24,699 nucleotides of DNA from Thermoplasmata archaeon (GCA_034667685.1 JAXDQU010000097.1:1-24699), one strand, 5' to 3'. Positions 3,115 to 20,375 are shown, counted from the first letter of the stretch. Notes: generated by a model from the letters alone, not told the origin. Made by a program: numbers and translations.

Positions 3115-4446
3115 GTGGCCGCCGGTCAACCGCGACTCGGGACCGCACGCCCGGTCGAGCCCTCCGCATCCGTCGGCGCGGGCGACGAGGCGGCCGGCGC
3201 GGGGTCCACGAGCTTCGTCTCGAACATGAAGCTCCCCGTGCACCGGTGGTACCGCTACTCGGCGGGCTACTCCGCGACGTGGGCGCGCGACGAGATCGTG
3301 GCCGCCAAGGGCCGCTTCCCCCAGGGGGTGCGCGTGCTCGATCCGTTCGCGGGCTCGGGCACCACGCTGCTTGCCGCGGACGAGGCGGGGGTCCCGAGCT
3401 TCGGCTTCGAGGCGCAGCCCTTCGCGTTCCGGGTCTGCGAGGCGAAGCTGGCGTGGGACGCGCCGGCCGAGCCTTTCTCGCGCCACCTGGGGTCGGTGCT
3501 CCAGGCCGCGAAGGCGGACGTGCAGCCCGTCGCCTCGACGCCCCTTCTCGACAAGTGCTTCGCGCCCGAGGTCGCGCGGCAGCTCCAGTCGCTCGCGCGC
3601 GCCGTGGACGCGGAGCAGACGGACGAGCCCACGCGGAGGCTCCTCTGGCTGGCGCTCGTCGCGATCATCCGCCGCTGCTCGCACGCGGGCACCGCGCCGT
3701 GGCAATACGTGCTGCCCGCGAAGACGAAGGCCAAGGTCGTCACGCAGGTCTTCGCCGAGTACGAGGCGCAGGCCCGGACCATGCTCCAGGACATGCGGAC
3801 CTTCGCCGCGGCGGGCGCGAAGCGCGGGAGCGCCGTCCTTCCCTTCGACGCCCGGAGCGTGCCGGAGGGCCACGGCGTCCACGATATCAATCTCGTCGTC
3901 ACCTCGCCGCCGTACGCGAACAACTACGACTACGGGGACGCGACGCGGCTGGAGCTGACGCTGCTGGGCGACGTCGCCGGGTGGGGCGACCTGAAGCGAT
4001 ATCGCGAGCGCCTGGTCGTGAGCTGCTCGCAGCACGCGGCCTACCTCGATCAGAAGGCGCGTCACCTCCTCGGGAAGCCCCTGCTCGCCCCGATCCGGGC
4101 CGACCTCGAGGCGGCATGCGGCGAGCTTGGGAAGCTCCGCGAGACGCGGGGCGGGAAGAAGCAGTACGACGACATGGTCGCGTCCTACTTCCACGGGATG
4201 GCGGAGCATTGGCGCGAGCTTCGCGGCCTGCTCGCGCCCGGCGCCGAGCTTTGCTACGTCGTGGGCGACAGCGCGCCCTACGGCGTCCCCATCCCCACGG
4301 ACGAGTGGCTCACGCGTCTCGCCGAGCCGTTCGGGTTCGCGTTCGATCGCTTCGACAAGGTGCGCGACCGGAACGTGAAGTGGAAGAACCGGAAGCACCG
4401 CGTGCCGCTGAACGAAGGGTGCCTCTGGCTGACGTTCCAACCTTGA
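3115..4446 (+). CDS. Orphan DNA amino-methyltransferase, probably N4-methylcytosine, alpha-type motif order
   Basis: Motif I VLDPFAGSGTT near the N-terminus, motif IV VVTSPPYANNYDY about 180 aa later, PVHRWYRYSAGYS, VVGDS; no adjacent endonuclease. Confidence 0.88.
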   Translation: MAAGQPRLGTARPVEPSASVGAGDEAAGAGSTSFVSNMKLPVHRWYRYSAGYSATWARDEIVAAKGRFPQGVRVLDPFAGSGTTLLAADEAGVPSFGFEAQPFAFRVCEAKLAWDAPAEPFSRHLGSVLQAAKADVQPVASTPLLDKCFAPEVARQLQSLARAVDAEQTDEPTRRLLWLALVAIIRRCSHAGTAPWQYVLPAKTKAKVVTQVFAEYEAQARTMLQDMRTFAAAGAKRGSAVLPFDARSVPEGHGVHDINLVVTSPPYANNYDYGDATRLELTLLGDVAGWGDLKRYRERLVVSCSQHAAYLDQKARHLLGKPLLAPIRADLEAACGELGKLRETRGGKKQYDDMVASYFHGMAEHWRELRGLLAPGAELCYVVGDSAPYGVPIPTDEWLTRLAEPFGFAFDRFDKVRDRNVKWKNRKHRVPLNEGCLWLTFQP

Positions 4447-7113: not shown

Positions 7114-8526
7114 TCAGGCGGGGAGCGTGCGGATCTCCAGGGCCCAGAGCGCGCAGATCGTCGGGTCGGGGCCCACGGTGGCGAAGCCCAGGTCGCGCGC
7201 GAGCTGGATCGCGGCGCACGCCACGTGGTCGCCGCCCGTCACGTCGACGTTGAAGAGCGTGTTGTCGCTCGTGGGGTTCGAGGCGATCTTGTACCAGTCC
7301 TCGCTGGGCGCGATGAGGTAGCCCAACTGGTCGTTGGCGAGGCCCGCGATGACGACGTGCGACGCGGCGACGTGCTGCTGCACGGTCCACTGCGCGTTGG
7401 GGTAGAGCTCGCCCGGCGCGCCCCAGACCAAGACGTCGCCGATGCGCAGCGCGGTGACGAGCGTGGTGATCTGGTTCCCCGCCATCCAGGGCGGCAGGTT
7501 CGAGCGCGCGATCGGCACGCACGTCGGGTTGATGCCCTGCGAGTCGAACGGGTTGTTCTGGATCGCGCAGCCCGGCCGCCCGGCCGCGAGGCTTCCCAGG
7601 AGGATCGGGTTGTAGGCGTTCAACGTGATCGCCGCCTCCGCGCCCGAGACGCCCGGCGCGGTCACGTACTCCGAGCCCGCGTAGGCCGCCACGATGTCGT
7701 TCGAGATGCGGTCCTCCCACGTGCTGCGGTCCCCCGCGGGGTGCGTCCGGCCCACGGCGCCCTCGCCGAGCACGACGGGCACGCCGCCGAAGCGCGCGCC
7801 CACCTTGTCGCTCACGATGCCGGGCCAGTCGGGCGAGAGCAGCGGCGCGGAGCCGTGGAGCGTCGCGTGCGCGGCGAACGTGCCGTAGACGCCGGAGAGC
7901 GCGCCATCGGGGCGCTCCGCGAAGAGCAGCCGGAACATGCCGTCGGGCGTGTCCTGGTTGGGCTGGTTGAAGTCGCTGCTGACGTAGCTGCTCTCGTTGA
8001 TCTCGGTGACGCGCAGGTGCGCGGGCGCGCGGGCCGCGTAGGCGTCGAGGATCGCCCCGGCCGTCTGGTCGGCGATGAGCTGCAGGTACGCGTCGCTCAC
8101 GCCGCCCCACGCGCCGGTCGTGTCGGCGCCGCGGTGCGAGTGGTCGCTGCTGATGAGCACGTGGCTCCGGGGCAGCGCGCCGCCCGTCGCGGTCTCGACG
8201 CGCTTCGCGATGTCGTACTGCCCGAACGCGCCGTCCGCGTACGCCGCGAAGGAGCCCTGGACCTCCAGGCTCGCCATCGCCACGCTCTGCAGGCCGTCGC
8301 CCACGACCACGGCCCTCACGTGGACCGGATACTCGTGCGCCACCGACGTCCGGCAGCAGCCGAACCCGAACCCGCCGAGGTTCACCTGCCCCTCCGGGTC
8401 GATGCCACGGATGCCGAAGCCCACGAGGAAGTCCGCGGGCGCGGCGGGCGTCGAGCGCGCCGGCGCGACGGCGAAGGCCAGGAGGGGAGCCACGAGCAGG
8501 AAGGCCACGAGGAGCGCGCGCATCAC
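7114..8526 (-). CDS. Secreted neutral/alkaline ceramidase-superfamily protein
   Basis: Signal peptide; VRAVVV, ISSDHSHRGAD, FAAHAT, SPDWPG, PGELYP, GLANDQLGYL. Confidence 0.78.
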   Translation of the reverse strand: MMRALLVAFLLVAPLLAFAVAPARSTPAAPADFLVGFGIRGIDPEGQVNLGGFGFGCCRTSVAHEYPVHVRAVVVGDGLQSVAMASLEVQGSFAAYADGAFGQYDIAKRVETATGGALPRSHVLISSDHSHRGADTTGAWGGVSDAYLQLIADQTAGAILDAYAARAPAHLRVTEINESSYVSSDFNQPNQDTPDGMFRLLFAERPDGALSGVYGTFAAHATLHGSAPLLSPDWPGIVSDKVGARFGGVPVVLGEGAVGRTHPAGDRSTWEDRISNDIVAAYAGSEYVTAPGVSGAEAAITLNAYNPILLGSLAAGRPGCAIQNNPFDSQGINPTCVPIARSNLPPWMAGNQITTLVTALRIGDVLVWGAPGELYPNAQWTVQQHVAASHVVIAGLANDQLGYLIAPSEDWYKIASNPTSDNTLFNVDVTGGDHVACAAIQLARDLGFATVGPDPTICALWALEIRTLPA

Positions 8527-8640: not shown

Positions 8641-9072
8641 TCAGGGCTCCGCGTAGAACAGCACGGGATCGGCGGCCATCCCCCGCCCGTCGACGTCCAC
8701 CGTCAGCGTCAGGCGGTACGTCCCCGCCTCGGGGAACGTGGCGCGCGGGATGGTTTCGACGTGGAGTGGCGTGTCGCCCGGGTTGCTGAAGGCGTCGGCC
8801 GCGACCTCGGCGTCGAAGGTCTTCACGAGCGTGTACGTGGGCGGCTCGGGCGGGTCGTGCTGCTCCTCCAGGACCATGTGGAGCTTGCCGTGGAAGGCGC
8901 GCGAGACGTTCTGCGCGTCGCGGCCCGTGATCTCGACGACGCCGTCCTGCCCGACCTTGGCGTAGGCGTTGGCGTGCACGAGGACGACCTTCCCGCTCTC
9001 GTCGGGGAAGACGTGGTCGGCGCCCAGGCAGCCGCACGCCGCCAGGGCCACGAGGAGGGCGCGCCAGCGCAT
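8641..9072 (-). CDS. Putative lipoprotein with beta-sandwich-like domain
   Basis: MRWRALLVALAACGCLG lipobox-like N-terminus; FPEAGTYRLTLTVDV strand. Confidence 0.7.
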   Translation of the reverse strand: MRWRALLVALAACGCLGADHVFPDESGKVVLVHANAYAKVGQDGVVEITGRDAQNVSRAFHGKLHMVLEEQHDPPEPPTYTLVKTFDAEVAADAFSNPGDTPLHVETIPRATFPEAGTYRLTLTVDVDGRGMAADPVLFYAEP

Positions 9073-9111: not shown

Positions 9112-9501
9112 CTATTCGAGGACGTGCGGGATCGGCGGCGCGATGCGCGCGTGCCTGGCGACCTCGTCGAGGATCTGGCCGGGATCGGGGACGTCGAGCG
9201 TCACCTCGTCGAACTCGGCGTGGTCCTTCAGGTGGAGCGTCAAGGCCTGCTTGGTGGCGCGGCGGATGTCCACGAACTTCCACTGCGCGTTGTCGTGGAA
9301 CGTGCCGCAGGCGATGATCTGCGGGAGGTGCGTGCCGACGCGGACGGTCGTGATGCCGGGCCAGCCCGGCGCGCCCACCTCGGCGTTCTCGATGGTGGCG
9401 TAGGGGACGACCAGCGCGCGGCGCATGGCCTCGACGCGCTGGACGCCTTCGAGCCGGATCGCGAGGTGGTCCTGGTGGAACTCGAACCGGGGCGAGGACA
9501 T
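9112..9501 (-). CDS. Hypothetical protein, possible PH-like domain (129 aa)
   Basis: From ATG9501: LVVPYATIENAEV, RVGTHLPQIIACGTF, ALTLHL, VTLDVPDP. Confidence 0.7.
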   Translation of the reverse strand: MSSPRFEFHQDHLAIRLEGVQRVEAMRRALVVPYATIENAEVGAPGWPGITTVRVGTHLPQIIACGTFHDNAQWKFVDIRRATKQALTLHLKDHAEFDEVTLDVPDPGQILDEVARHARIAPPIPHVLE

Positions 9502-9706
9502 GCCCCTGGTTCGCGCGTCGGAGGGTTTGACGACGCTCGGAGGTGAAGAACCGGCGCGGGCCACTGCGCGCCGGTTCTTCGAGCGATCCAGGCGGCTGGG
9601 CGCCGTAACCGTTTGCAGGATCGGTCTTGCCAAGCCAGATTCACACGAATACTCCGCAATCGGGATGAGCGCGCGGGTGTCTCCACATCGCGGATCGGTG
9701 GGAGAC

Positions 9707-10279
9707 ATGTCGATGCGTATCCTCGCGCTTCTCGCGCTCGCGCTAACAACTTCGCCCCTCGCCAGCGCGCATCTGGCGGACGTCGCGGTCGGGCCCTCGG
9801 GGCCCAGCGTGGACCAGAACCCCTCGACGTACTTCGTGGACGTGGCGGCCGACGTCCCGGAGACGCCGCACAGCTCCACCGCCGCGGCGGACGACTGCGC
9901 CGGGAGCGGCCATCCCGCGGGACCCAGCGGCGTCGTGGAGGGGATCGCCGACCGCGAGTCCTCCACCCTCGGGGGCGCCGTGGCCGCCCTCGCCAACCCC
10001 GACGGCCCCAACGTCTACGTCCGGGGGGCCCTCCCCCGGTGCGTCGCGACGTGGGACGTCTGCCCGCCGACCCTCGGCATCCTCTCGTGCACGTACGCCT
10101 CCTACGACGTCACCAGCGGCCGTTACTACGTGACGACCGACACCCACCCTGACCTGCCCATCCACGTGTGGACCTCCACCTCCTCCGGGACCGCATCCAG
10201 CGACACCGCCATCACCGGCACGACGGGCCTGATCGTGGAGAACGACTGCCTGGACTGCCCGCCCCCCGTGTGCTGCTGA
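9707..10279 (+). CDS. Secreted Ser/Thr/Cys-rich protein (190 aa)
   Basis: GGAG SD before ATG9707; signal peptide MRILALLALALTTSPLASA; ends DCLDCPPPVCC. Confidence 0.72.
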   Translation: MSMRILALLALALTTSPLASAHLADVAVGPSGPSVDQNPSTYFVDVAADVPETPHSSTAAADDCAGSGHPAGPSGVVEGIADRESSTLGGAVAALANPDGPNVYVRGALPRCVATWDVCPPTLGILSCTYASYDVTSGRYYVTTDTHPDLPIHVWTSTSSGTASSDTAITGTTGLIVENDCLDCPPPVCC

Positions 10280-10339
10280 GGGGGCCCGCGCACGCCGGTC
10301 CCGCTCGCGGCCCTCGCGCTGCCCGCCGCCATCGCCGCA

Positions 10340-12355
10340 TTGGGCGTCCTGATCCTCGCCGCGCGCCCCGGGGCGCCCGCGCACAAGGTCCTCGGGGCGC
10401 TCCTGCTGCTGCGCGCGGGCTTCATGGGCGCCTTCGCGCTCGCCACGTCGGCCTCCGGGCCGGGGGACGCGCTCGCCCTCTCGTTCGTCGGCGCCGCGTG
10501 GTCGCTCGCCATCCCCGCGCTCGTCGTGTATGCGGCGCGGACGCTCTGGCCCTCGCGCGCCCCCCGCGCCACGGGCTGGCTCCTCGTCGTCCTCGTCGCC
10601 GCGGCCGCGCTCCTGGGCGTCGCGTCCGCGGCCGACCCGGCCATGCTCGTCGCGTCGGTCCAGCGGGTGCCGGGCGGATGGGGCGCCGCGAGCGGGCCGC
10701 TGCTCTACGTCAACGCGGCGCTCTCCGCGGCCGCCGACGCCGCCTTCGTCCTCGTCGCGGCGCGCGCGACCCGCGATCCCGAGGCCTCCGAGCCCGCGCG
10801 GCGCGCGGCCGGGCTCCTGGGGCTCGCGTTCGGCGTCTTCACGCTCTACTCGGCCGGCTTCTTCGCCGCCAGCGCGCTCACGCAGCCCGGCCGGCTCGCC
10901 GCGCCGCTCTTCGCGCTGCGCGCCACCGCGACGATGGCCGCCGGGCTCGCGATCCTCACGCAGGCGCCGCGCCTCGCGAGCCCCGCCCGCGCCTGGGGTC
11001 CTCCCGTCGCAGCCTGCGCGCTCGCGGTCGCCGGCCTGGGCGCGCTCGACGACCTCCTGGGCGACCGGGGCGCCGACGCGCTGCTGCGCGCGCTCTTCGG
11101 CGCGCTCGTGATCGTCGCGGTGGTCCGCTACGGCCTCGCCTCGGCCGATCCGCGCGAGCGGGCCCGCGCGCGCTCCGGCCTGCGCATCCTGCTCGCGGGC
11201 GCCTCCGCGGCCGCGGTCGGGCTCCTCGTGCAGGCGGGCCTGGGCGCGGGCGCGCTCGCGTGGGGCGCGGCGGGGAGCGCGGCGCTCCTGGCCTTCGCCC
11301 TCGCGTGGCGCCCGATGGACCTCCTCGCGGCGCGCATCCTTCTCGCCACCGACGACCCGCGCGCCGTCGCCGAGCGCGCCCGCCGCTACGCCGCCGCGTT
11401 CGCCATCGCGGGCGAGACGCCGGCGCTGGAAGAGCTTCGCCGCAGCCTCGGCATCACGCTCCACGAGCACCAGCTCCTCGTCCAGGGGCGCGCGTCGCGC
11501 GAGGCGATCGGCCGCTATGCGCTGGGCCCGGAGCTCCACCGCGGGAGCACGGCGAGCGTGCACCTCGCCACGGACGCGCAGACGGGCCGCGAGGTCGTCG
11601 TGAAGCGCTTCCACGCCGCGCGCGAGGGGCAGCGCATCCTCGCCGAGGCGCGCGCTCTCCAGGCCGCCGCGAGCCCGCGCGTCGTCCGCCTGCTCGACGT
11701 GGGGCACGAGGACGGCCGCGCGTTCCTCGTCATGGAGCGGGCGGCCGGCGGCAGCGCGCGCGACGCGCTCGACCGCGCGGGGCCATTTCCCCCGGAGCGC
11801 GCCGTCGCGCTCGTCGAGGACCTGCTGGAGGCGCTCGACGCGATGCACGCGGCCGGGCTCGTGCATGGCGACGTGAAGTGCGAGAACCTGCTTCTCGACG
11901 CGGACGGGCGCGGCCTCCTGGCCGACCTTGGCTCCGCGCGCGCCTCCGACCCGACGAGCACGCTCACCAGCGCGGACGCGGAGGGAAGCCTCGCGACGCT
12001 GGCGCCCGAGGTCGCGCGCGGCCAGCGCCCCACCCCCGCGGCCGACCTCTACGCCGCCGGCGCGGTCCTCTATCGTCTGCTCACCGGTGAGCACCCCATC
12101 GACTTGGCGGGGCTCGACGCGCTCTCGGCGCGCGACCGCCTGCTCATCGCGCCGCCGCGCCTGCCGCACGAGCGCGTGCCCGCGTGGCTCGCCCCCATCC
12201 TGCGCAGCGCGCTCGCCAAGCGGCCCGAGGAGCGGCCCGCCAGCGCGGCGGCGTTCCGCGGCCTGCTCAGGACTGGAAGACCAGGTGCGAGCGCCCCACG
12301 CCCACGATATCACCCGGCCGGAGCGGCACCGACGTCCCGCGACCGACCGGCGTGA
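10340..12355 (+). CDS. Multi-pass membrane Hanks-type Ser/Thr protein kinase (start uncertain)
   Basis: About 340 aa of hydrophobic helices, then LHRGSTASVHLA, VVVKRF, LAEARAL, LVME, HGDVKCEN, ADLG, LAPE, ADLYAAG, PEERP. Confidence 0.88.
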   Translation: MGVLILAARPGAPAHKVLGALLLLRAGFMGAFALATSASGPGDALALSFVGAAWSLAIPALVVYAARTLWPSRAPRATGWLLVVLVAAAALLGVASAADPAMLVASVQRVPGGWGAASGPLLYVNAALSAAADAAFVLVAARATRDPEASEPARRAAGLLGLAFGVFTLYSAGFFAASALTQPGRLAAPLFALRATATMAAGLAILTQAPRLASPARAWGPPVAACALAVAGLGALDDLLGDRGADALLRALFGALVIVAVVRYGLASADPRERARARSGLRILLAGASAAAVGLLVQAGLGAGALAWGAAGSAALLAFALAWRPMDLLAARILLATDDPRAVAERARRYAAAFAIAGETPALEELRRSLGITLHEHQLLVQGRASREAIGRYALGPELHRGSTASVHLATDAQTGREVVVKRFHAAREGQRILAEARALQAAASPRVVRLLDVGHEDGRAFLVMERAAGGSARDALDRAGPFPPERAVALVEDLLEALDAMHAAGLVHGDVKCENLLLDADGRGLLADLGSARASDPTSTLTSADAEGSLATLAPEVARGQRPTPAADLYAAGAVLYRLLTGEHPIDLAGLDALSARDRLLIAPPRLPHERVPAWLAPILRSALAKRPEERPASAAAFRGLLRTGRPGASAPRPRYHPAGAAPTSRDRPA

Positions 12356-12959
12356 AGTTCACGCGCGCGGGGTTGCGCGCCTGCGGCTCCGAGGAGAGGA
12401 CGAACGCCGCGCCCTCGCGCGCGATGCCCGCGCTGCGCGAGCTGGCGAACGGGTCGTACTCCAGCGTGATATCATTCTGCCGCGAGCGCCCGACGCTCCA
12501 CGGGCCGGGCCCGTCGAGCCCGAACGCGCGCCCCTCCCACGGCCCCCCCAAGAGCACGAGCCGCGGGCTCCGGGGCCACTCGGGGCTGACCGCCGCGCCG
12601 CCCTCCGCCTCCGTCGCGTCCACGTCGACGCGCATCGTGGGCTCGATCGCCGTCAAGCCGCGCAGGTCCTCGACCACCGCGAAGAGGCGCTGCGCGCTCA
12701 CCACGAACTTGGAGGCGCCCTCCCCGTCGAGGCGGTTGACGAAGCCCGATTCCTCCAGCACGTCCAGGTGCAGGCTGATCGCCTGGCGGCTCATCGTGCG
12801 CTCCGCGCTCAGGTCCGCGTCGCGCCGACGCGGCCGCACGTCCACGTCCGCGGGCGCGCGGGGCGTCCGGAGCTGGAAGAGAAGCTCCAGGCGCGCCGGG
12901 TGCGAGAGGGCGCGCAGGTGCGCGCTGAGGCGCTCGAGGTCGACGTCCGGCTCGGCCAT
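12267..12959 (-). CDS. ArsR-like winged-HTH + FHA-domain transcriptional regulator
   Basis: LRALSHPARLELL...MSRQAISLHLDVLEESGFV (wHTH); WSVGRS, DPFASSRSA, RNPARVN, LRPGDIVGVGRSHLVF (FHA). Confidence 0.85.
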   Translation of the reverse strand: MAEPDVDLERLSAHLRALSHPARLELLFQLRTPRAPADVDVRPRRRDADLSAERTMSRQAISLHLDVLEESGFVNRLDGEGASKFVVSAQRLFAVVEDLRGLTAIEPTMRVDVDATEAEGGAAVSPEWPRSPRLVLLGGPWEGRAFGLDGPGPWSVGRSRQNDITLEYDPFASSRSAGIAREGAAFVLSSEPQARNPARVNFTPVGRGTSVPLRPGDIVGVGRSHLVFQS

Positions 12960-12990
12960 GGGGAATCGTGGGAGCGGTGGTCGTCGAACG

Positions 12991-12997
12991 AATAAAA
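12991..12997 (-). promoter_or_regulatory. TATA box of the wHTH-FHA gene (TTTTATT)
   Basis: About 32 nt upstream of ATG12959 on the minus strand. Confidence 0.6.
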
Positions 12998-13037
12998 CTT
13001 CGCCACGGAGCCGTCCCCGCTCGCGATGGATTCATGC

Positions 13038-13064
13038 TCTATGGCTCCACCATAGATGTCATAG
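13038..13064. promoter_or_regulatory. Candidate toxin-antitoxin operator
   Basis: TCTATGG-N5-CCATAGA plus a further CATAG half-site just upstream of the antitoxin ATG. Confidence 0.5.
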
Positions 13065-13071
13065 GGTTCCC

Positions 13072-13272
13072 ATGGGCGCTTCGAGCATCCAGGTCTCCGA
13101 CGACACCCGCGCCGCGCTGCGACGTTACAAGACGGACGGCATGACGTATGAGGACGTCCTCAAGCTCATGATGCAGATCATGCCGCCCGAAGAATTCCAC
13201 GCGCTCTACGCCAAGTGGCAGAAGCAGGTCGCGGACGGCATCCGAAAGTCCAAGAAATGGTCCTCCTTCTAA
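13072..13272 (+). CDS. Ribbon-helix-helix antitoxin-like protein (66 aa)
   Basis: SSIQVSDDTRAALRRYKTDGMTYEDVLKLMM fits the archaeal RHH pattern; 6 nt upstream of a RelE-like gene. Confidence 0.75.
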   Translation: MGASSIQVSDDTRAALRRYKTDGMTYEDVLKLMMQIMPPEEFHALYAKWQKQVADGIRKSKKWSSF

Positions 13273-13278
13273 CACACG

Positions 13279-13638
13279 ATGGGATGGACGCTCGCGCAGC
13301 ACCGAGGCTTCGCGCGTGAGCTTGCGAAGCTCGACCGCGCGGACGCCGACGCCGTTCGAGCGAGCCTGGAACGCCTGAGGGCGCAGCTGGTTCGCGCAGG
13401 TTCCGTTGATCCGCGGAAGACGTTCTCCTCGGAGGCCCTCTTGCCCGTGCCCGACCTCCAGCCCTTGCGTGCGACGGGCATCCCGGGCTCATACCGGCTC
13501 CGCGTGGGCCGGCATCGCGTCGCGCTCGCGATCCTGCCAGACGAGCGGCTCGTGCTGTTCACGGTCCTCGCGCGCCGCGACGAGACGACGTATGACAAGC
13601 TGCCCGAGCTTCACCGGAAGCGGTTCGCCGATCGGTAG
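13279..13638 (+). CDS. RelE/ParE-family toxin
   Basis: WTLAQHRGFARELAKLD; SYRLRVGRHRVALAI...LFTVLARRDETTY. Confidence 0.78.
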   Translation: MGWTLAQHRGFARELAKLDRADADAVRASLERLRAQLVRAGSVDPRKTFSSEALLPVPDLQPLRATGIPGSYRLRVGRHRVALAILPDERLVLFTVLARRDETTYDKLPELHRKRFADR

Positions 13639-13653
13639 GCGACGAGTCCGGCA

Positions 13654-14631
13654 CTATCCTTCCGAATAGTCGTAGAACCCCTTGCCCGTCTTCCGGCCGA
13701 GCCGTCCGCTCGCCACGAGCTGCTGCACGATCTGCGGCGTGCGCTGCGATTCGGAGACACCCATCTCGCGCATGTTCTTGGCGACGTGCCAGACGACGTC
13801 GAGGCCGACCATGTCGGCCAATTCCAGCGGGCCCATGGGCCAGCCGGCGCCGGTCTTCATCGCCTTGTCGATGTCGCGGGCGCTGGCGATGCCCTCCTCG
13901 TAGATGTTGAACGCCTCGGTGAAGGCGCGGCCCAGGATGCGGTTCACGACGAAGCCGGGCGTCTCCTTGACCTTCACGGGCAGCATCGGATAGCGGTGGT
14001 TGCGCAGCTCTTCGAGGAAGCTGATCGTCTCCTCGACGACGCTCTCGGACGTCTCCAGCGCGGGGATGACCTCGACGAGCGGGAGCGTGGTGGGCGGGTT
14101 GAAGAAGTGCGCGCCGAGCACCTTCTGCCGGCGGTCCTTCACGGCGCTGGCGATCTCGGTGATGGAGAGCGCGCTGGTGTTCGTCGCGAGGATGGCGTGG
14201 CGCGGCGTGTGCTTCTCCAGGTCCGCGAACACGGCCTTCTTGATATCCATCCGCTCGACGACGGCCTCGACGACGAAGTCCACGTCGGCCAGGTCGTCGT
14301 AGGAGGTCGTGCCCTTGATCGACTTGAGGACGCGGGCCGCGCGGTCCTGCGTGTACGTGGCCGACTTCGCCTCGCGGATCTTGGCCTTCTGCTCGTCGGT
14401 GAGCTTGATGCCGTTGTCCGTCTCGATGCGTTCGATCTCGCGGTCGCCCTTGCCCTGGTGGAACTGGACGAGCCCCGAGAGGCTCGACTCGATGTTCTTC
14501 AGGCCGCGCTGCACGAACTCGTCCTTGACGTCCTTGAGGACGACCTGCTTGCCGTTGAGCGCGAAGACCTCGGCGATGGCGGCGCCCATGGCGCCCGCGC
14601 CGACCACGGCCACCTTCTCGACGTAGACCAT
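13654..14631 (-). CDS. hbd: 3-hydroxyacyl-CoA (3-hydroxybutyryl-CoA) dehydrogenase
   Basis: VAVVGAGAMG, VVEAVVERMDIKK, ATNTSALSIT, HFFNPP, LVEVI, PGFVVNRIL, PMGPLELADMVGLD, GRKTGKGFYDY. Confidence 0.92.
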   Translation of the reverse strand: MVYVEKVAVVGAGAMGAAIAEVFALNGKQVVLKDVKDEFVQRGLKNIESSLSGLVQFHQGKGDREIERIETDNGIKLTDEQKAKIREAKSATYTQDRAARVLKSIKGTTSYDDLADVDFVVEAVVERMDIKKAVFADLEKHTPRHAILATNTSALSITEIASAVKDRRQKVLGAHFFNPPTTLPLVEVIPALETSESVVEETISFLEELRNHRYPMLPVKVKETPGFVVNRILGRAFTEAFNIYEEGIASARDIDKAMKTGAGWPMGPLELADMVGLDVVWHVAKNMREMGVSESQRTPQIVQQLVASGRLGRKTGKGFYDYSEG

Positions 14632-17161: not shown

Positions 17162-17932
17162 ATGTCGGAGATGACGCTCCTCGCGGGAGGCGCCACGTCG
17201 CTCCTCAGCGGCATCGTCTACGCGGTCGTGGGCGCGCGCATCGCCTCGAAGCCGGGCGGCTCGGACGACCGCACGGCGCTGCGCGCGTTCGGCGCGTGGT
17301 GGCTGGGCCTCTCGCTGCTGGCCCTCGTGGGCGCCTTCGAGACCTTCCTCTGGCTCGCGGGCGCGCGGGCGCCCGTCTTCCACGTCCCGATCCTGTACCT
17401 CACGCTGATCCCGCTCTTCGTCGCCCTGTGGGGGATCTTCTACTATCTCGCGTACCTCTTCTCCGGCCGCAGGAGCCTGCTCTGGATCTCGGCCGCGCTC
17501 TACGCGGGTCTCTATGCCGTCTTCGTCGTGATCGTCGTCACGCTCGATCCCGTGGGCGTGAAGGCGATGACGTGGGACGTGCGCGTGGAGTACGGCGCCA
17601 CGCTCTCGCCCGCCGCGACGCTCGTCGCCACGCTGCTCCTGCTCGTGCCGATCCTCCTGGCGGCCGTCGCGTACGGGTCGCTGATCTTCCGGCTCCGCGA
17701 TCCGGCGCAGCGCTTCCGCGTGATCGTCGTCTGCGTCTCGCTCCTCGTCTGGTTCGGCGGGCCGCTGGGCGCGCAGTTCGCGGGCTTCGGCGAGAGCGAC
17801 GCCTGGGCGATGGCGAACCGCTTCCTCAGCCTCGCGTGCGCCCTCGCCATCCTCTTCGCCTATCGCCCCAGCGCGCGAGTGCTCCGGCGCGTCATGCGCG
17901 GCAGCGGCCAAGGGGGCGACCGCAGTGGGTGA
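17162..17932 (+). CDS. Stand-alone ~7-TM membrane protein (putative sensor)
   Basis: Seven hydrophobic segments, no soluble output domain; abuts the ATPase gene and overlaps the kinase start by 8 nt. Confidence 0.8.
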   Translation: MSEMTLLAGGATSLLSGIVYAVVGARIASKPGGSDDRTALRAFGAWWLGLSLLALVGAFETFLWLAGARAPVFHVPILYLTLIPLFVALWGIFYYLAYLFSGRRSLLWISAALYAGLYAVFVVIVVTLDPVGVKAMTWDVRVEYGATLSPAATLVATLLLLVPILLAAVAYGSLIFRLRDPAQRFRVIVVCVSLLVWFGGPLGAQFAGFGESDAWAMANRFLSLACALAILFAYRPSARVLRRVMRGSGQGGDRSG

Positions 17933-20375
17933 CGCGCGCTTCACGAAGCACTACGATCGCGTCCGCGAGGCGATGAACTCGATCGACGAGATCGAGCGCA
18001 TGTCGGACGACGACCTCGTCCAGGCGCTGGGCGCCGCCTCGCGCAACCGCGACCCCTACCTCGCCAACGTGCTCACCACGGCGGTGCTCAACCGCACGCG
18101 GCGCGGCCGGGCGGTGATCGAGACGATCGGCGACGGCGTCTGCATCGTGGACCGCAAGGGCATCGTGACGTTCGCCAACCCCGCGGCCGCGAAGCTCCTG
18201 GGCTGGGCGATCCACGAGCTGCAAGGGACCTACTTCCACGCCATCGCGCACCTTCACCTGGGGCGCCACCACGAGCAGCGCGACGACTGCCCGCTGGAGG
18301 CCGCGCTCCGCAACGCCCCAGCCGCCCGCGCGGACGAGAGCATCCCGGTCGTGCGCGTCGACGACTCCTTCAGCCGCCGCGAAGGCATGCCCATCGAGGT
18401 CGCGTGCGCGATCTCGACGATCGTGGTGGACGGCATCCCGGACGCGAGCGTCGTCCTCTTCCAGGACGTCAGCGAGCGCAAACGGGCGCAGACCCTGCTC
18501 GTCGAGCAGACGCGCGTGCTGGAGAGCGCGGTGGAGAAGACGCTCGGCGAGCTTGCGCACCGCGACCGCGTGGAGCGCCGGTTCGCGAGCATCCTCGCCG
18601 CGCTGCCCGAGGGCTTCGTCATCACCGACGCGTCGGGCGTCATCACGATGGCGAGCCGCGCGACGGAGACGATGTTCGGCTACGGGCCCGGCGAGCTCGT
18701 CGGCGAGCTTGCGGGCGTCCTCCTCCCCGAGCGTTTCCGCTCGCCGGAAGCCCCGCAGGCGCCCTCCGCCGGGCAGCCGAGCCCCTCCGCGCGCATCGAG
18801 ATCGCCGGGCGCCGCAAGGACGGCACCGAGTTCCCCATCGAGGTCACGACCTCCGCGTTCGAGGACGTCGAGGGCCCCGCGCAGGTCACGATCATCCACG
18901 ACGTGGGCGCGCGAAGGCTGCGCGAGGAGACGCTGCGGCACAACGAGGCGACGTTCAACCAGGCGCAGGCGCTCGCCGGCGTGGGGTCGTGGGAGCTCGA
19001 CCTGGAGACGGGCCGGCTCTCGTGGTCCGACGAGATGTATCGCCTCTGCGGCTTCGCGCCGCGCGAGCTGGATCCGACGTGGGCCGGCTTCCTTCTGATC
19101 ATCCACCCCGAGGACCGCGCGGCCCTCGAGTCCGCGCTCGCGCGGGCCAAGGAAAGCGGCGACGCCCCCGTGACCGTCGAGGCGCGCGTCCTTCCCACGG
19201 AGGGCGGCGCGAGGAGCCTGCACGTGCGGATGGTGGCGCTGCCGCGGCCGGGGGGCGGGACGCGCGTCCTGGGCACGGCGCGCGACGTCGCCGTCGAGCG
19301 GGAGCTGCGCGACGCGGTCGAGCACTGGACGACGCGCTTCCACGCGGTGCTCGGCCACCTCCACGAGGGGATCGTGCTCGTGGGCGCCGACCGCGCCGTG
19401 CGGGCCGCCAACGCCCAGGCGCGCGACCATGGCGCGCTCGACGCCCACGGCGCGCTCTCCGAGGCGCTCCGGTCGTACGTGGACCGCGTCTCGCCCAAGA
19501 GCGCCGGGGGCGTGGCGCGCGTCGCGCTCCGGCTCCCCGCGGGCGAGGAGGTCACGGAGATCGTCGAGACGCGCCCGCTGCGGGACGACCTGCTCGTGAT
19601 CGTCGAGGATCCCTCCAAGCTCGACGCGATGGAGGCCAAGCTGCGCGAGGCGACGACGGAGCTGGAGAAGCGCGTCGCGGAGCGGACCGCCGCGCTCACG
19701 CGCAACTACCGCGAGATGGAGGCGTTCAGCTACACGGTCTCGCACGACCTGCAGGCGCCGCTGCGGGGGCTCGACTTCCTCCTCACCGTCGCGCTCGAGG
19801 ACCACGCGCCCAAGGACGGGAAGCTGCGGGCGGACCTCATGCGGATGAGCGAGGAGGTCGCGCGCCTGCGGGCGTTCGTGAAGGCCGCGCTCCAGCTCGC
19901 GCGCATCGGCGTGCAGCCCATGGACCGGACGCGCGTGGACCTCTCGCAGCTCGCGACGGACCTCGCCGAGCAGATGCGCCACGCCTTCCCCGGCCGGCTC
20001 GTGGACGTCACGGTCCAGCCGGGCATGGCGGCCGACGCCGACGCCGCGCTCGCCAAGACGCTCCTGGAGAACCTGCTCTCCAACGCCTGGAAGTACTCGG
20101 CCAGCCGCTCCGTGGCGCGCGTCGAGGTCGGCACCGTGCCGGGCTCGCCCGCGACGTTCTTCGTGCGCGACGACGGCGACGGGTTCGACATGCGCGAGGC
20201 CTCGCGGCTCTTCCAGCCCTTCACGCGCCTGGCCCGCGCGAGCACGAAGGAGGGCTCCGGCGTCGGGCTCGCCAGCGCGAAGCGCGTGGTGGAGGCGCAC
20301 GGCGGGCGCATCTGGGCGGAGAGCGCGCCGGGCAAGGGCGCGACGTTTTTCTTCACGCTCAGAACCGCTTCTTGA
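17925..20375 (+). CDS. Cytoplasmic multi-PAS sensor histidine kinase
   Basis: Three clear PAS domains (FANPAAAKLLGW; ETMFGY...RRKDGTEFPIEV; WSDEMYRL...IHPED) plus a degenerate fourth; H-box SHDLQAPL, N-box NLLSNAWKY, DDGDGFD, GSGVGLA, GATFFF. Confidence 0.93.
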   Translation: MGDARFTKHYDRVREAMNSIDEIERMSDDDLVQALGAASRNRDPYLANVLTTAVLNRTRRGRAVIETIGDGVCIVDRKGIVTFANPAAAKLLGWAIHELQGTYFHAIAHLHLGRHHEQRDDCPLEAALRNAPAARADESIPVVRVDDSFSRREGMPIEVACAISTIVVDGIPDASVVLFQDVSERKRAQTLLVEQTRVLESAVEKTLGELAHRDRVERRFASILAALPEGFVITDASGVITMASRATETMFGYGPGELVGELAGVLLPERFRSPEAPQAPSAGQPSPSARIEIAGRRKDGTEFPIEVTTSAFEDVEGPAQVTIIHDVGARRLREETLRHNEATFNQAQALAGVGSWELDLETGRLSWSDEMYRLCGFAPRELDPTWAGFLLIIHPEDRAALESALARAKESGDAPVTVEARVLPTEGGARSLHVRMVALPRPGGGTRVLGTARDVAVERELRDAVEHWTTRFHAVLGHLHEGIVLVGADRAVRAANAQARDHGALDAHGALSEALRSYVDRVSPKSAGGVARVALRLPAGEEVTEIVETRPLRDDLLVIVEDPSKLDAMEAKLREATTELEKRVAERTAALTRNYREMEAFSYTVSHDLQAPLRGLDFLLTVALEDHAPKDGKLRADLMRMSEEVARLRAFVKAALQLARIGVQPMDRTRVDLSQLATDLAEQMRHAFPGRLVDVTVQPGMAADADAALAKTLLENLLSNAWKYSASRSVARVEVGTVPGSPATFFVRDDGDGFDMREASRLFQPFTRLARASTKEGSGVGLASAKRVVEAHGGRIWAESAPGKGATFFFTLRTAS

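Follow-up and report, generated by a model that had tools for sequence, protein, structure and literature searches.

The genes at positions 9707-12959 of the window, a stretch of 24,699 nucleotides from a Thermoplasmata archaeon (GCA_034667685.1 JAXDQU010000097.1:1-24699), are best read, with some reserve, as encoding one of a set of lineage-specific cognate pairs, each comprising a polytopic sensor-Hanks kinase and a dedicated ArsR-type wHTH-FHA regulator connected by a proposed phospho-relay. The locus comprises (i) the gene of a signal-peptide-like Cys-rich protein (9707-10279, plus strand; 190 aa, recognized by its open reading frame and coding signal, with a TGA stop codon at 10277-10279); (ii) the gene of a multi-pass membrane Hanks kinase (10340-12355, plus strand; 671 aa counted from the first canonical start); and (iii) the gene of an ArsR-like wHTH and FHA protein (12267-12959, minus strand; 230 aa), convergent to the kinase gene. 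The open reading frames agree with the three genes and coordinates given by the initial annotation, as does the 89-nt overlap of the two 3' ends at 12267-12355, and a third-position GC content of 0.88-1.00 supports all three frames. Among the convergent kinase/wHTH-FHA pairs of relatives, 13 of 20 display a 3' overlap of 4-96 nt. An A/T-rich TTTTATT element (12991-12997, minus strand), located ~35 nt upstream of the regulator ATG, resembles an archaeal TATA box. The host genome, that of a soil organism, is confirmed as archaeal, its SSU rRNA scoring 1498 bits on the archaeal model and being followed by an archaeal LSU.

The cassette had been described as a single one; it is present as described, but belongs to a family of pairs expanded 11-fold. 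A tblastn search of the own genome recovered 11 kinases built like that of the window, together with 11 wHTH-FHA genes. In each family, 10 members adjoin a partner on the same contig, within ~2 kb, with only the C85 kinase and the C17 wHTH-FHA gene lacking one. In a broader set of 45 wHTH-FHA genes, comprising the 11 own copies and 34 from the genomes of other species, where the pattern scan yielded Thermoplasmatota-type records only, a kinase domain is encoded in the same locus in 36 cases, in convergent (20), co-directional (12) or divergent (4) orientation; of the nine genes without a kinase, at least four lie near contig ends. Non-conservation of this neighbourhood, an outcome that the initial annotation held would speak against the pathway, was thus not found among the relatives. 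The divergence of the two partners also co-varies: the Mantel correlation for the 10 own pairs is r = 0.85, a value reached by 0 of 20000 permutations, and the FHA and kinase trees have 6 of 33 bipartitions in common, whereas 2000 label shuffles gave 0.19 on average and never more than 3, both tests being based on paralogs, which are not independent samples. Among the clades common to both trees are C12/C122 and C28/C95, each a pair from within the genome, as well as C97/C25/L002. Such congruence demonstrates co-duplication, and fits cognate pairing without proving it. At a larger scale, 25 of 301 genomes of the phylum contain both families, 3 contain the FHA family only, 2 the sensor family only, and 271 neither. 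Taken as comparative evidence, adjacency, co-varying divergence and co-occurrence lend strong support to the predicted link from the kinase to an FHA transcription factor.

It is very improbable that the two genes are neighbours without direct signalling, associated by co-duplication or shared regulation only, with the real substrates elsewhere. The variable orientation and the separation of at least 2 kb between kinase and wHTH-FHA gene in some loci would accommodate such an arrangement, and the part of PMC4601284 consulted describes Hanks kinases as often pleiotropic. However, adjacency outlasts the orientation changes and 35-65% sequence divergence, and the two families co-occur phyletically. 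In addition, the genome contains eight Pfam FHA places, every one inside a wHTH-FHA gene, and 12 Pfam Pkinase places, 11 of which display the window architecture, the twelfth being a weak 34-bit match. Phosphatases of the PP2C, PP2C_2 and SpoIIE families were not found in this genome, which is 99% complete, so that these families supply no off-switch.

The kinase domain (11525-12247, plus strand) is of the Hanks Ser/Thr type and matches Pfam Pkinase (PF00069) at aa 396-636 of the kinase, with an E value of 6.8e-35 and 121.2 bits, where the cut-off is 31.7. Residues K422, E436, H509, D511, N516, D529, P556 and E557 are present in the window kinase and invariant in 10 paralogs, and the Hanks-type catalytic set, comprising the VAIK Lys, the αC Glu, the HxD Asp, the Asn, the DxG Asp and the APE motif, is complete, with a degenerate glycine loop (H-R-G-S-T-A). 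Judged from these residues, the enzyme looks catalytically competent, the opposite of the inactive kinase that had been named as a ground against the pathway. The previously recorded non-RD character is borne out by an HGD motif and a DLG motif in place of DFG; the C25 and C108 paralogs likewise have HGD, C54 has HLD, and the other six have HRD. Activation-loop phosphorylation, the usual docking site of FHA domains, is not required for the activity of non-RD kinases, so that the window kinase, being of the HGD type, would not depend on it. The same domain accounts for the resemblance to defence systems. The PADLOC models of PD-T4-6 and mad6, both kinase-based systems, match the kinase with E values down to 3.8e-55, and NCBIfam MADS6 matches at 4.7e-36, far below its cut-off, which could suggest that the cassette serves anti-phage defence or conflict, with a Ser/Thr kinase at its core. 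Nevertheless, these matches span the generic kinase domain only (aa 363-656), the architecture is unlike that of PD-T4-6 and mad6 systems, the genome encodes eleven paralogs with membrane sensors and DNA-binding partners, and the cassette contains no further defence gene, all of which makes such a function exceedingly improbable.

The kinase begins with a membrane sensor domain (aa 1-385; 10340-11494, plus strand), which comprises about 9-10 membrane helices, one β-hairpin loop and a cytoplasmic helical linker. The nine hydropathy segments and the AlphaFold2 model, a confident helical bundle (pLDDT 90.2, pTM 0.86), corroborate the large multi-pass domain proposed at the outset. This architecture is preserved in nine of nine further paralog kinases, in which Pkinase is preceded by a membrane region of 380-450 aa that belongs to no family. 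A sensor profile built from 10 paralogs matches 1292 cluster representatives, nearly all of 600-760 aa among the 150 matches listed, and 71 of 73 aligned sensor relatives carry Pkinase. Pfam HisKA_7TM (PF16927) matches six of these 73 relatives, with a best E value of 5.1e-11, and gives no match at E <= 10 with the window sensor domain and nine own paralogs; when the genome was searched with PF16927, the C122 paralog was matched only at E 0.03. C106, a paralog lacking the kinase, is matched by PF16927 (E 5.3e-4, positions 3-222 of 224) and, across identical residues, by the paralog profile (E 3e-13). Comparison of the sensor model with the PDB disclosed only a 7TM-bundle-like resemblance. Judging by the profile matches, the membrane domain seems to be a distant relation of the HisKA_7TM sensor of histidine kinases.

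The C-terminal half of the regulator consists of an FHA domain (aa 133-229; 12273-12563, minus strand), modelled by AlphaFold2 as a β-sandwich and matched by Pfam FHA (PF00498) at aa 154-222 (E 1.6e-5; 25.7 bits against a cut-off of 20.7). The best Foldseek matches of this model are the FHA domains of GarA and OdhI, with 33-37% identity, an rmsd of 1.1-1.7 Å and target-normalised TM scores of 0.86-0.94, and the matched entries include, by their titles, the PknB-GarA complex and phosphorylated OdhI. The phosphothreonine-binding residues are strongly conserved among the 45 relatives, with G157 and R158 preserved in all 45 and S173 and N196 in 44 each, and the window protein also retains N201, consistent with the initial annotation that the domain keeps GR, S and N. 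The loss of the usual His of the SxxH motif, likewise recorded there, is visible as Ser176; this position is occupied by Asn in 22 relatives, His in 20, Gln in two, and Ser in the window protein alone. The linker between wHTH and FHA contains Thr116 (codon 12612-12614, minus strand), a candidate phospho-acceptor that is Thr in 43 of 45 relatives and invariant in an alignment of 21 sequences, with adjacent linker columns varying freely; position +3 is hydrophobic (Leu, Ile, Val or Ala) in 29 of the 45, and Glu in the window protein.

The N-terminal half reads as an ArsR-like wHTH (aa 1-105; 12645-12959, minus strand), in which the AlphaFold2 model shows helices at residues 8-17, 21-29 and 58-71, a hairpin at 74-87 and a helix at 89-103. 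An Arg-rich insertion of 28 residues (aa 30-57), modelled at lower confidence, precedes the recognition helix. The Pfam HTH_5/ArsR match is marginal (aa 49-75, E 8.1e-5, 22.9 bits against a cut-off of 22, thus 0.9 bits over), NCBIfam HTH_metalloreg matches below its cut-off (E 7.5e-6, 25.7 bits against 55), and solved ArsR/YgaV structures give weak sequence matches (E 0.5-0.9). Cys/His ligands like those with which ArsR/SmtB metal sensors bind metal are not found, and the 230-aa regulator contains no Cys. It seems unlikely, but deserves weight, that this protein is a kinase adaptor or regulator, or a substrate scaffold, rather than a transcription factor, with the wHTH fold serving protein contacts. 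FhaA and FipA are mycobacterial FHA adaptors, and the weak NCBIfam FHA matches of the regulator, which stay under the cut-off at E 1.5e-5, are with adaptors of the FhaB/FipA type; the marginal wHTH match with its unusual insertion and the strict one-to-one pairing, which suits an obligate subunit as well as a response regulator, point in the same direction. Against this, 21 relatives keep both the segment of the recognition helix and the succession of helices and wing typical of ArsR proteins, four Pfam HTH families, HTH_20 among them, match the same segment, and the Arg-rich insertion adjoins the recognition helix. Furthermore, the closest ortholog (L002) carries a perfect 20-nt palindrome in the promoter of its own wHTH-FHA gene, 53-72 nt upstream of the start.

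The same word is found in the window as the imperfect palindrome TTGCAGGATCGGTCTTGCCA (9613-9632), 75-94 nt upstream of the ATG of the Cys-rich gene, and similar promoter-proximal palindromes occur at four other genes of the own genome. Genome-wide, the palindrome with up to two core mismatches is not enriched (12 occurrences versus about 10 in shuffles), and the perfect-core class alone is (1 versus 0.01). The palindrome at 9613-9632 is accordingly treated as a putative operator, a lead only that comes from sequence comparison.

The N-terminus of the Cys-rich protein, read from the sequence, runs from M-S-M-R through a hydrophobic stretch to A-S-A and resembles a signal peptide, a pattern common to all four of its relatives. 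The protein contains eight Cys residues, four of them invariant among these relatives, ends in D-C-x-x-C-P-P-P-x-C-C, and gave no Pfam or NCBIfam match and no recognisable fold or family. The four relatives belong to one genus and each lies directly upstream of an orthologous or paralogous kinase. Among 21 genomes of the class, a search with the window protein as query detected it in three, all belonging to that genus, and only beside one kinase subfamily. In L039 the secreted gene and the kinase gene are translationally coupled by a GTGA stop/start overlap, and in the C25 paralog GGAGG and a GTG lie 2-4 codons past the stop of the secreted gene. The self-contained ligand-to-receptor step that had been proposed finds no support in this narrow distribution and the lack of a family or a fused form. 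The protein appears to be a genus-specific accessory of one kinase subfamily in the same operon; its link to the kinase is one of operon structure and translational coupling, which only weakly suggests a role as ligand, and a role as co-sensor is possible but unsupported.

The junction between the two genes displays a feature overlooked by the initial annotation: the TGA that ends the Cys-rich gene is in frame with the kinase open reading frame. The 20 codons between it and the first canonical kinase start (10280-10339, plus strand) are hydrophobic and contain no ATG, GTG or TTG, and their translation lines up with membrane helix 1 in the three kinases most closely related to this one, so that no canonical start of the window kinase would take in this helix. 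The secreted domain and the kinase might therefore form one polypeptide if ribosomes read through the TGA, or re-initiate with no canonical start, giving a tethered extracellular Cys-rich domain. The sequence itself is reproduced by contigs of an independent soil run, which match 9614-10719 with 0 differences, the TGA is also in frame in the C25 paralog, and by the positive-inside rule the predicted helix would have its N-terminal end outside and its C-terminal end inside, as suits an external N-terminal domain. We nonetheless hold a single polypeptide to be quite improbable, given that three of four cassettes have a kinase start of their own: the C25 kinase starts with GTG preceded by GGAGG, the L039 kinase in another frame within the GTGA overlap, and the L040 kinase with ATG after a gap of ~70 nt. 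Moreover, an in-frame TGA in two of four cassettes equals the chance expectation, TGA is the commonest stop of the genome (629 of 1009 long open reading frames), tRNA-Sec and tRNA-Pyl were not found in the genome, and, as weak evidence, no fused homolog appeared among longer proteins.

Compared to known systems, the kinase and wHTH-FHA pair is read as analogous to PknH-EmbR from Mycobacterium tuberculosis, probably with a GarA-like phospho-switch. The pknH and embR genes adjoin, the former encoding a membrane Ser/Thr kinase and the latter a DNA-binding protein that ends in an FHA domain, and kinase activity reaches transcription through phosphothreonine and the FHA-bearing regulator, the logic proposed here. 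Foldseek also matched the FHA part with the EmbR structures 2fez and 2ff4. On the other hand, (i) EmbR combines an OmpR-type wHTH with a BTAD domain, whereas the present wHTH is ArsR-like and without BTAD, neither Trans_reg_C nor BTAD giving a Pfam match in the regulator at E <= 0.1; (ii) PknH is a single-pass protein with an extracellular domain, whereas the present kinase crosses the membrane many times, in a bundle of some 10 helices; and (iii) the pairs number 11 per genome and occur in an archaeon. The actinobacterial proteins GarA and OdhI, phosphorylated by PknB/PknG, offer the closest solved FHA folds and, in a flexible stretch preceding the FHA domain, a conserved Thr whose counterpart would be Thr116; in their phospho-switch the FHA domain itself binds the phosphorylated Thr. 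In contrast to the window protein, they lack a DNA-binding domain and regulate metabolic enzymes, and self-binding of phosphorylated Thr116 is only deduced by analogy.

In archaea, the text consulted of PMC5007285 describes the ArnA/ArnB system of Sulfolobales with the ArnC/ArnD kinases, also ST0829/ST1565, in which Hanks kinases act on an FHA transcription regulator, and the FHA structure of ArnA, 5a8i, is among the Foldseek matches. The statement that such a pathway is not described in archaea therefore stands in part: the literature searched contains no pair of membrane kinase and wHTH-FHA regulator, but Sulfolobus already offers a case of kinases acting through FHA regulators, at least from the portion of that source consulted (PMC5007285). 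As presented there, ArnA joins a zinc finger to the FHA domain and has a vWA partner, unlike the present N-terminal wHTH, which lacks an ArnA-type zinc finger, having no Cys; also according to that portion of the source, no one-to-one adjacency to membrane sensor kinases is seen for the Sulfolobus genes, in contrast to those here. A further likeness is to two-component systems with HisKA_7TM, which the section consulted of PMC5847659 lists among the sensor domains found in archaeal histidine kinases: one sensor and one dedicated DNA-binding partner are encoded by adjacent genes and expanded by duplication, and the sensor bundles seem distantly related, as indicated by the 6 of 73 relatives and the bridging paralog C106. 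Two-component systems rely on His-Asp phosphotransfer, whereas Ser/Thr phosphorylation read by an FHA domain is proposed here. Ordinary two-component parts are found in the same genome (22 HisKA and 26 REC places), and HisKA, HATPase and REC are absent from the kinase and regulator proteins.

We infer the following course of signalling, from the stimulus through each biochemical step to DNA binding and the target genes. A stimulus in or at the membrane would be sensed by the 7TM-type bundle and switch on the cytoplasmic kinase, which would autophosphorylate on Thr; the FHA domain of the regulator would dock on the phosphothreonine of the kinase, which would then phosphorylate the regulator, most likely at the linker Thr116. 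The FHA domain might subsequently bind phosphorylated Thr116 in the same chain or across a dimer, as in GarA/OdhI, altering the binding of the wHTH dimer to its operator and thereby transcription, with the sensor operon itself possibly among the targets. Weighing against this course are Ser176 in place of the His, the non-RD motif and degenerate glycine loop of the kinase, the marginal wHTH match with its insertion, Glu at +3 of Thr116, the absence of a canonical start that takes in the first membrane helix, the partnerless C85 and C17, and the failure to find the three phosphatase families.

Seen across the family, we tentatively suggest, while granting that it may well prove otherwise, that a clade of Thermoplasmatota operates a second, parallel Ser/Thr 'two-component' system, in which ~10 kinases per genome with 7TM-type sensors would be wired one-to-one to ArsR-wHTH and FHA regulators, a phosphothreonine in the linker being read by the regulator's own FHA domain. 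Such pairs would have multiplied by whole-pair duplication, like pairs of histidine kinase and response regulator, with a sensor borrowed from or shared with HisKA_7TM proteins, and the Cys-rich proteins and the promoter palindrome may mark the input and the regulon of one pair. The pairs would thus point to signalling like that of bacterial two-component systems, built from different parts.

The window is one complete contig (24,699 nt) of an archaeal genome that comprises 3.48 Mb in 124 contigs at 71% G+C. The SSU rRNA of this genome matches the archaeal Rfam model along its full 1478 positions (1498 bits) and is followed by an archaeal LSU rRNA. Because many spurious ORFs open at such G+C, reading frames were picked by third-position G+C. 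The cassette comprises (i) a secreted Cys-rich protein gene (9707-10279, forward strand; 190 aa), (ii) a kinase gene (10340-12355, forward strand; 671 aa counted from the first canonical start, with the frame open from 10280), and (iii) a wHTH-FHA regulator gene (12267-12959, reverse strand; 230 aa), the last two convergent and overlapping by 89 nt at their 3' ends. The initial annotation had proposed these three genes, and all are confirmed at these positions, with domains matched by Pfam and NCBIfam: Pkinase at aa 396-636 of the second gene (Pfam E 6.8e-35), and FHA (E 1.6e-5, above the cut-off) and HTH_5/ArsR (E 8.1e-5, just above the cut-off) in the third, NCBIfam giving the same picture at the domain level. 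A bacterial-type scan of 9400-13300 returned 0 promoters and 0 terminators, the bacterial models being uninformative for an archaeon.

The same arrangement recurs across the genome. Searching with the window proteins (tblastn, E ≤ 1e-5) discloses 11 kinase domains and 11 wHTH-FHA genes, 10 of each sharing contigs at a spacing of about 2 kb or closer (C97, C25, C108, C54, C12, C109, C28, C31, C122 and C95), with a kinase on contig C85 and a wHTH-FHA gene on contig C17 left over. The former (C85:26827-28965) is the sole unpaired multi-pass kinase and the latter (C17:34845-35672) the sole unpaired wHTH-FHA gene of the genome, and the two might form a pair in trans. Pfam locates 12 Pkinase places, comprising the 11 kinases found by tblastn and a weak 34-bit match, and 8 FHA places, every one within a wHTH-FHA gene. 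All nine further full-length kinases share one build, in which the Pkinase domain comes after a region of 380-450 aa that shows 7-11 hydropathy peaks and matches no Pfam family.

Beyond this genome, the protein collection holds 41 full-length or near full-length relatives of the regulator at 35-65% identity, and species-representative genomes contribute 36 loci. The neighbourhood set includes every wHTH-FHA match 180 aa or longer (n = 45; 11 own, 34 elsewhere), leaving out the shorter matches at loci L033, L035 and L036. A kinase domain occurs in the same locus for 36 of the 45, in convergent (20), regulator-then-kinase (8), kinase-then-regulator (4) or divergent (4) orientation; 13 of the 20 convergent pairs overlap at their 3' ends by 4-96 nt, and another four lie at most 26 nt apart. 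Nine loci are kinase-less, at least 4 of them lying no more than about 2 kb from the end of a contig, and at locus L017 a kinase fragment is severed by the contig end. The record set that carries the closest ortholog of the cassette (L002, L024 and L028) is titled proteobacterium, and the titles of other related records are mostly Thermoplasmatota, with some Halobacteriales or Methanobacteriota; the non-Thermoplasmatota titles look like mislabels, since the search places all such records in the phylum of the window, the closest in its genus.

Regulators and their neighbouring kinases have diversified in parallel. Among the pairs of the genome itself, a comparison unconfounded by species history because all pairs reside in one genome, the pairwise distances of regulators and kinase domains correlate with r = 0.85, a value reached in 0 of 20000 permutations; all 36 pairs give r = 0.54 (0 of 5000 permutations), and the FastTree trees of the two proteins have 6 of 33 bipartitions in common, against 0.19 on average and never more than 3 in 2000 label shuffles, none of these permutation and shuffle figures being a probability, as paralogs are non-independent samples. 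Among the clades common to both trees are C12/C122 and C28/C95, each a sister pair from this one genome, and C97/C25/L002, all with support of at least 0.98 in both. These comparisons show that kinase and regulator have been duplicated together, as a unit. The two families also co-occur: in a sample of 301 genomes evenly drawn from the phylum, profiles match the regulator in 28 and the membrane sensor domain of the kinases in 27, with 25 genomes carrying both, 3 the regulator only, 2 the sensor only and 271 neither, and within the class of the window the regulator is present in 20 of 20 sampled genomes. The best 9 regulator and 6 sensor candidates were scored per genome, so copy numbers are not comparable. 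The proposal that the kinase signals to the FHA regulator is well supported by comparative evidence from neighbourhood, co-diversification and co-occurrence, and the single-cassette reading is best widened to a family of putative cognate pairs.

The AlphaFold2 model of the regulator (pLDDT 88.2) has a pTM of 0.49, as expected because its two domains are loosely tethered. The N-terminal part comprises helices at aa 8-17 and 21-29, an Arg-rich insertion of 28 residues predicted at lower confidence, the recognition helix (aa 58-71), a β-hairpin wing (aa 74-87) and a further helix (aa 89-103); the FHA sandwich (aa 133-229) follows after a linker that includes a short helix (aa 113-119). The wHTH is not a thiolate metal sensor, because it contains no Cys. 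The top Foldseek matches are the FHA domains of GarA/OdhI (33-37% identity, rmsd 1.1-1.7 Å), with EmbR, Bdellovibrio DgcB and Sulfolobus ArnA lower in the list. Of the FHA residues, G157 and R158 occur in all 45 relatives and S173 and N196 in 44 each, and the SxxH position is occupied by N (22), H (20), Q (2) or S (1), the last being the protein of the window. The most informative residue, T116 in the linker, is conserved in 43 of 45 relatives amid freely variable adjoining columns, and the position at +3 is hydrophobic in 29 of 45 (L 17, A 7, V 3, I 2). A phospho-acceptor read by an FHA domain would be expected to show this pattern, which makes T116 a candidate phosphosite; from the resemblance to GarA/OdhI, which suggests self-binding, we infer that the regulator may bind its own linker after phosphorylation of T116.

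The kinase domain retains its catalytic residues. K422 (the Lys of VAIK), E436 (the αC Glu), H509, D511, N516, D529 and P556-E557 are invariant in the alignment of 10 paralogs. The description of the enzyme as non-RD, with HGD and DLG motifs, holds, both being present; HGD also occurs in two paralogs and HRD in six. The glycine loop is degenerate (H-R-G-S-T-A), with the most conserved Gly retained, and no sign of a pseudokinase was seen. A role of the cassette as a defence system was considered and rejected, the matches being to the generic kinase domain only. A search of the genome for PPM-family phosphatases (PP2C_2, SpoIIE, PP2C) found none.

The membrane sensor domain belongs to a large family. 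A profile built from 10 paralogous domains and searched against 1.84 billion representatives yields 1292 matches at E ≤ 0.001, of which 650 reach E ≤ 1e-10; among the best 150 of the 1292, almost all are 600-760 aa long with the matched region N-terminal, and 71 of 73 aligned members carry Pkinase, the two exceptions being the query domain and a single shorter protein. Pfam HisKA_7TM matches 6 of the 73 (best E 5.1e-11), and the membrane domain of the window gave no direct match to it. Contig C106 encodes a kinase-less paralog of the sensor (C106:146492-147772; 426 aa), which matches the paralog profile (E 3e-13) and, across the same residues, positions 3-222 of 224 of HisKA_7TM, weakly and below the cut-off (E 5.3e-4); it terminates in the cytoplasmic motif Y-R-A...L-R-x-x-L-G-I-S, which in six paralogs stands ahead of the kinase domain. 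This protein is one bridge from the domain family of the window to HisKA_7TM, which PMC5847659 names among the sensor domains of archaeal histidine kinases. The AlphaFold2 model of the membrane domain (73-row alignment) is confident (pLDDT 90.2, pTM 0.86) and predicts about ten long helices with one β-hairpin loop (aa 104-118); three short helices on the cytoplasmic side lie between these and the kinase. Foldseek returned no solved structure at E ≤ 0.001; VIA-align superposes residues 1-275 on 7TM bundles of the GPCR type (rmsd about 4 Å, about 200 aligned residues) at Z 10-11, below the bar of about 13 for helical bundles, and this GPCR-like seven-helix likeness of the model may be just a common arrangement. 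We class the domain as distantly related to the HisKA_7TM sensor and as no more than a possible member of that family.

The secreted Cys-rich protein has a much narrower distribution. It has no Pfam or NCBIfam family and no usable look-alikes in the ESM Atlas (Atlas model pLDDT 0.29), and a weak search found no longer or fused homolog among the 8000 candidates sharing most words. Its relatives, found with this query in 3 of 21 genomes of the class, are confined to the genus of the window, as a paralog on C25 and single copies in two other genomes (G108 and G093), and every such gene lies directly upstream of a kinase of the same subfamily. The four proteins share invariant V-A-x-G-P-x-G, D-C, P-x-C-x-A-T, Y-D-V-x-x-G-R-Y-Y, T-G-T-x-G and D-C-x-x-C-P-P-P motifs, and three of them end in C-C. 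On C85, C31, C122, C54 and C108, too, the paralog kinases are preceded by genes whose products have N-termini resembling those of signal-peptide proteins or lipoproteins. The initial annotation had cast the secreted protein as the ligand of the receptor kinase, a reading that is not supported, nothing showing a ligand role; the predicted complex with the membrane domain scores 0.01 against a mark of 0.32, a value that supports neither reading, the partner's own fold being uncertain.

The junctions of the relatives comprise (i) C-C-TGA on C25, then GGAGG and a GTG at most four codons on, (ii) a GTGA stop/start overlap in another frame in G108, and (iii) an ATG that follows after about 70 nt in G093; the secreted protein and the kinase are therefore encoded by separate, translationally coupled genes. 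At this junction in the window (10277-10340), the kinase ORF is open in the frame of the TGA that terminates the secreted gene. The 20 codons after this stop read as a run of hydrophobic residues that lines up with helix 1 of the membrane domain in the three closest relatives, yet they contain no ATG, GTG or TTG; the first canonical start, the TTG at 10340, lies inside this helix. The kinase may thus have a non-canonical start, a truncated N-terminus or TGA read-through. A sequencing or assembly error was rejected in a contig-level check, contigs from run X1, possibly the source, and from the independent soil run X2 being identical there, and selenocysteine or pyrrolysine insertion was likewise rejected, with no tRNA-Sec or tRNA-Pyl among 48 tRNAs (Aragorn) and TGA the commonest stop. 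Over all contigs these 48 tRNAs include none for Trp or Tyr, and Aragorn has probably missed intron-containing archaeal tRNAs.

A possible operator precedes some of these genes. In the L002 ortholog, a perfect 20-nt palindrome, TTGCAGGATCGATCCTGCAA, lies 53-72 nt ahead of the start codon (ATG) of the regulator gene (L002:5917-5936), and the window carries TTGCAGGATCGGTCTTGCCA at 9613-9632, 75-94 nt before the ATG of the secreted gene. The 14-position core occurs with up to 2 mismatches at 12 genome sites versus 9.9 in shuffles (1, 1 and 10 sites with 0, 1 and 2 mismatches, versus 0.01, 0.5 and 9.4); with no excess in the total count, a genome-wide motif was rejected and the palindrome kept only as a lead. 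Five sites also have a central GATC or GAAC; all are promoter-proximal, and four of them (C115:9828, C76:25562, C12:70573 and the site of the window) precede genes for Cys-rich, signal-peptide-like proteins. The form TTGCAGGATC..GATCCTGCAA lies 36-157 nt before start codons at these four sites, C8:24214 and L002:5917-5936, and the sites may constitute a candidate regulon of some transcription factor.

Around the cassette, three well-supported ORFs lie on the 5' side (7114-8526, 8641-9072 and 9112-9507, all on the reverse strand), the first two with signal-peptide-like N-termini; no member of the trio belongs to a Pfam family or recurs beside the relatives of the cassette. On the 3' side, two small tandem ORFs (13084-13272 and 13279-13638, forward strand; 62 and 119 aa) occupy a stretch of lower G+C (0.656 in 13001-14000) and may be a toxin-antitoxin pair; neither has a Pfam match at E ≤ 0.01, and the second looks, by eye, RelE/ParE-like in its motif. 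Farther away are an ORF with a DNA methylase match (3115-4446, forward strand; N6_N4_Mtase, 33 residues only, E 1.3e-10) and a cytoplasmic multi-PAS histidine kinase (17925-20375, forward strand; PAS, HisKA, HATPase_c). Ordinary two-component systems are plentiful in the genome alongside the kinase/FHA pairs, with 22 HisKA and 26 REC places.

By its logic, PknH-EmbR is the closest known system to these kinase/FHA-regulator pairs, and by FHA fold and linker Thr the closest is GarA/OdhI. In archaea, the nearest are ArnA/ArnB with ArnC/ArnD, and ST0829/ST1565, the few kinase/FHA cases described in reviews being all from Sulfolobales (PMC5007285). A full-text search of open-access papers and bioRxiv turned up no account of wHTH-FHA/multi-pass kinase pairs from archaea.

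Signal transduction in archaea is little understood, and the kinase/FHA pairs offer a defined, testable system, with short soluble regulators, the candidate phosphosite T116 and clear FHA mutants (R158, S173). The eleven paralogous pairs of one genome allow a direct test of kinase-partner specificity, the question that made two-component systems a model for pathway insulation after duplication. A putative function is given to a large unannotated family of membrane domains (1292 cluster representatives), and the same sensor module may feed two different phosphorylation chemistries.
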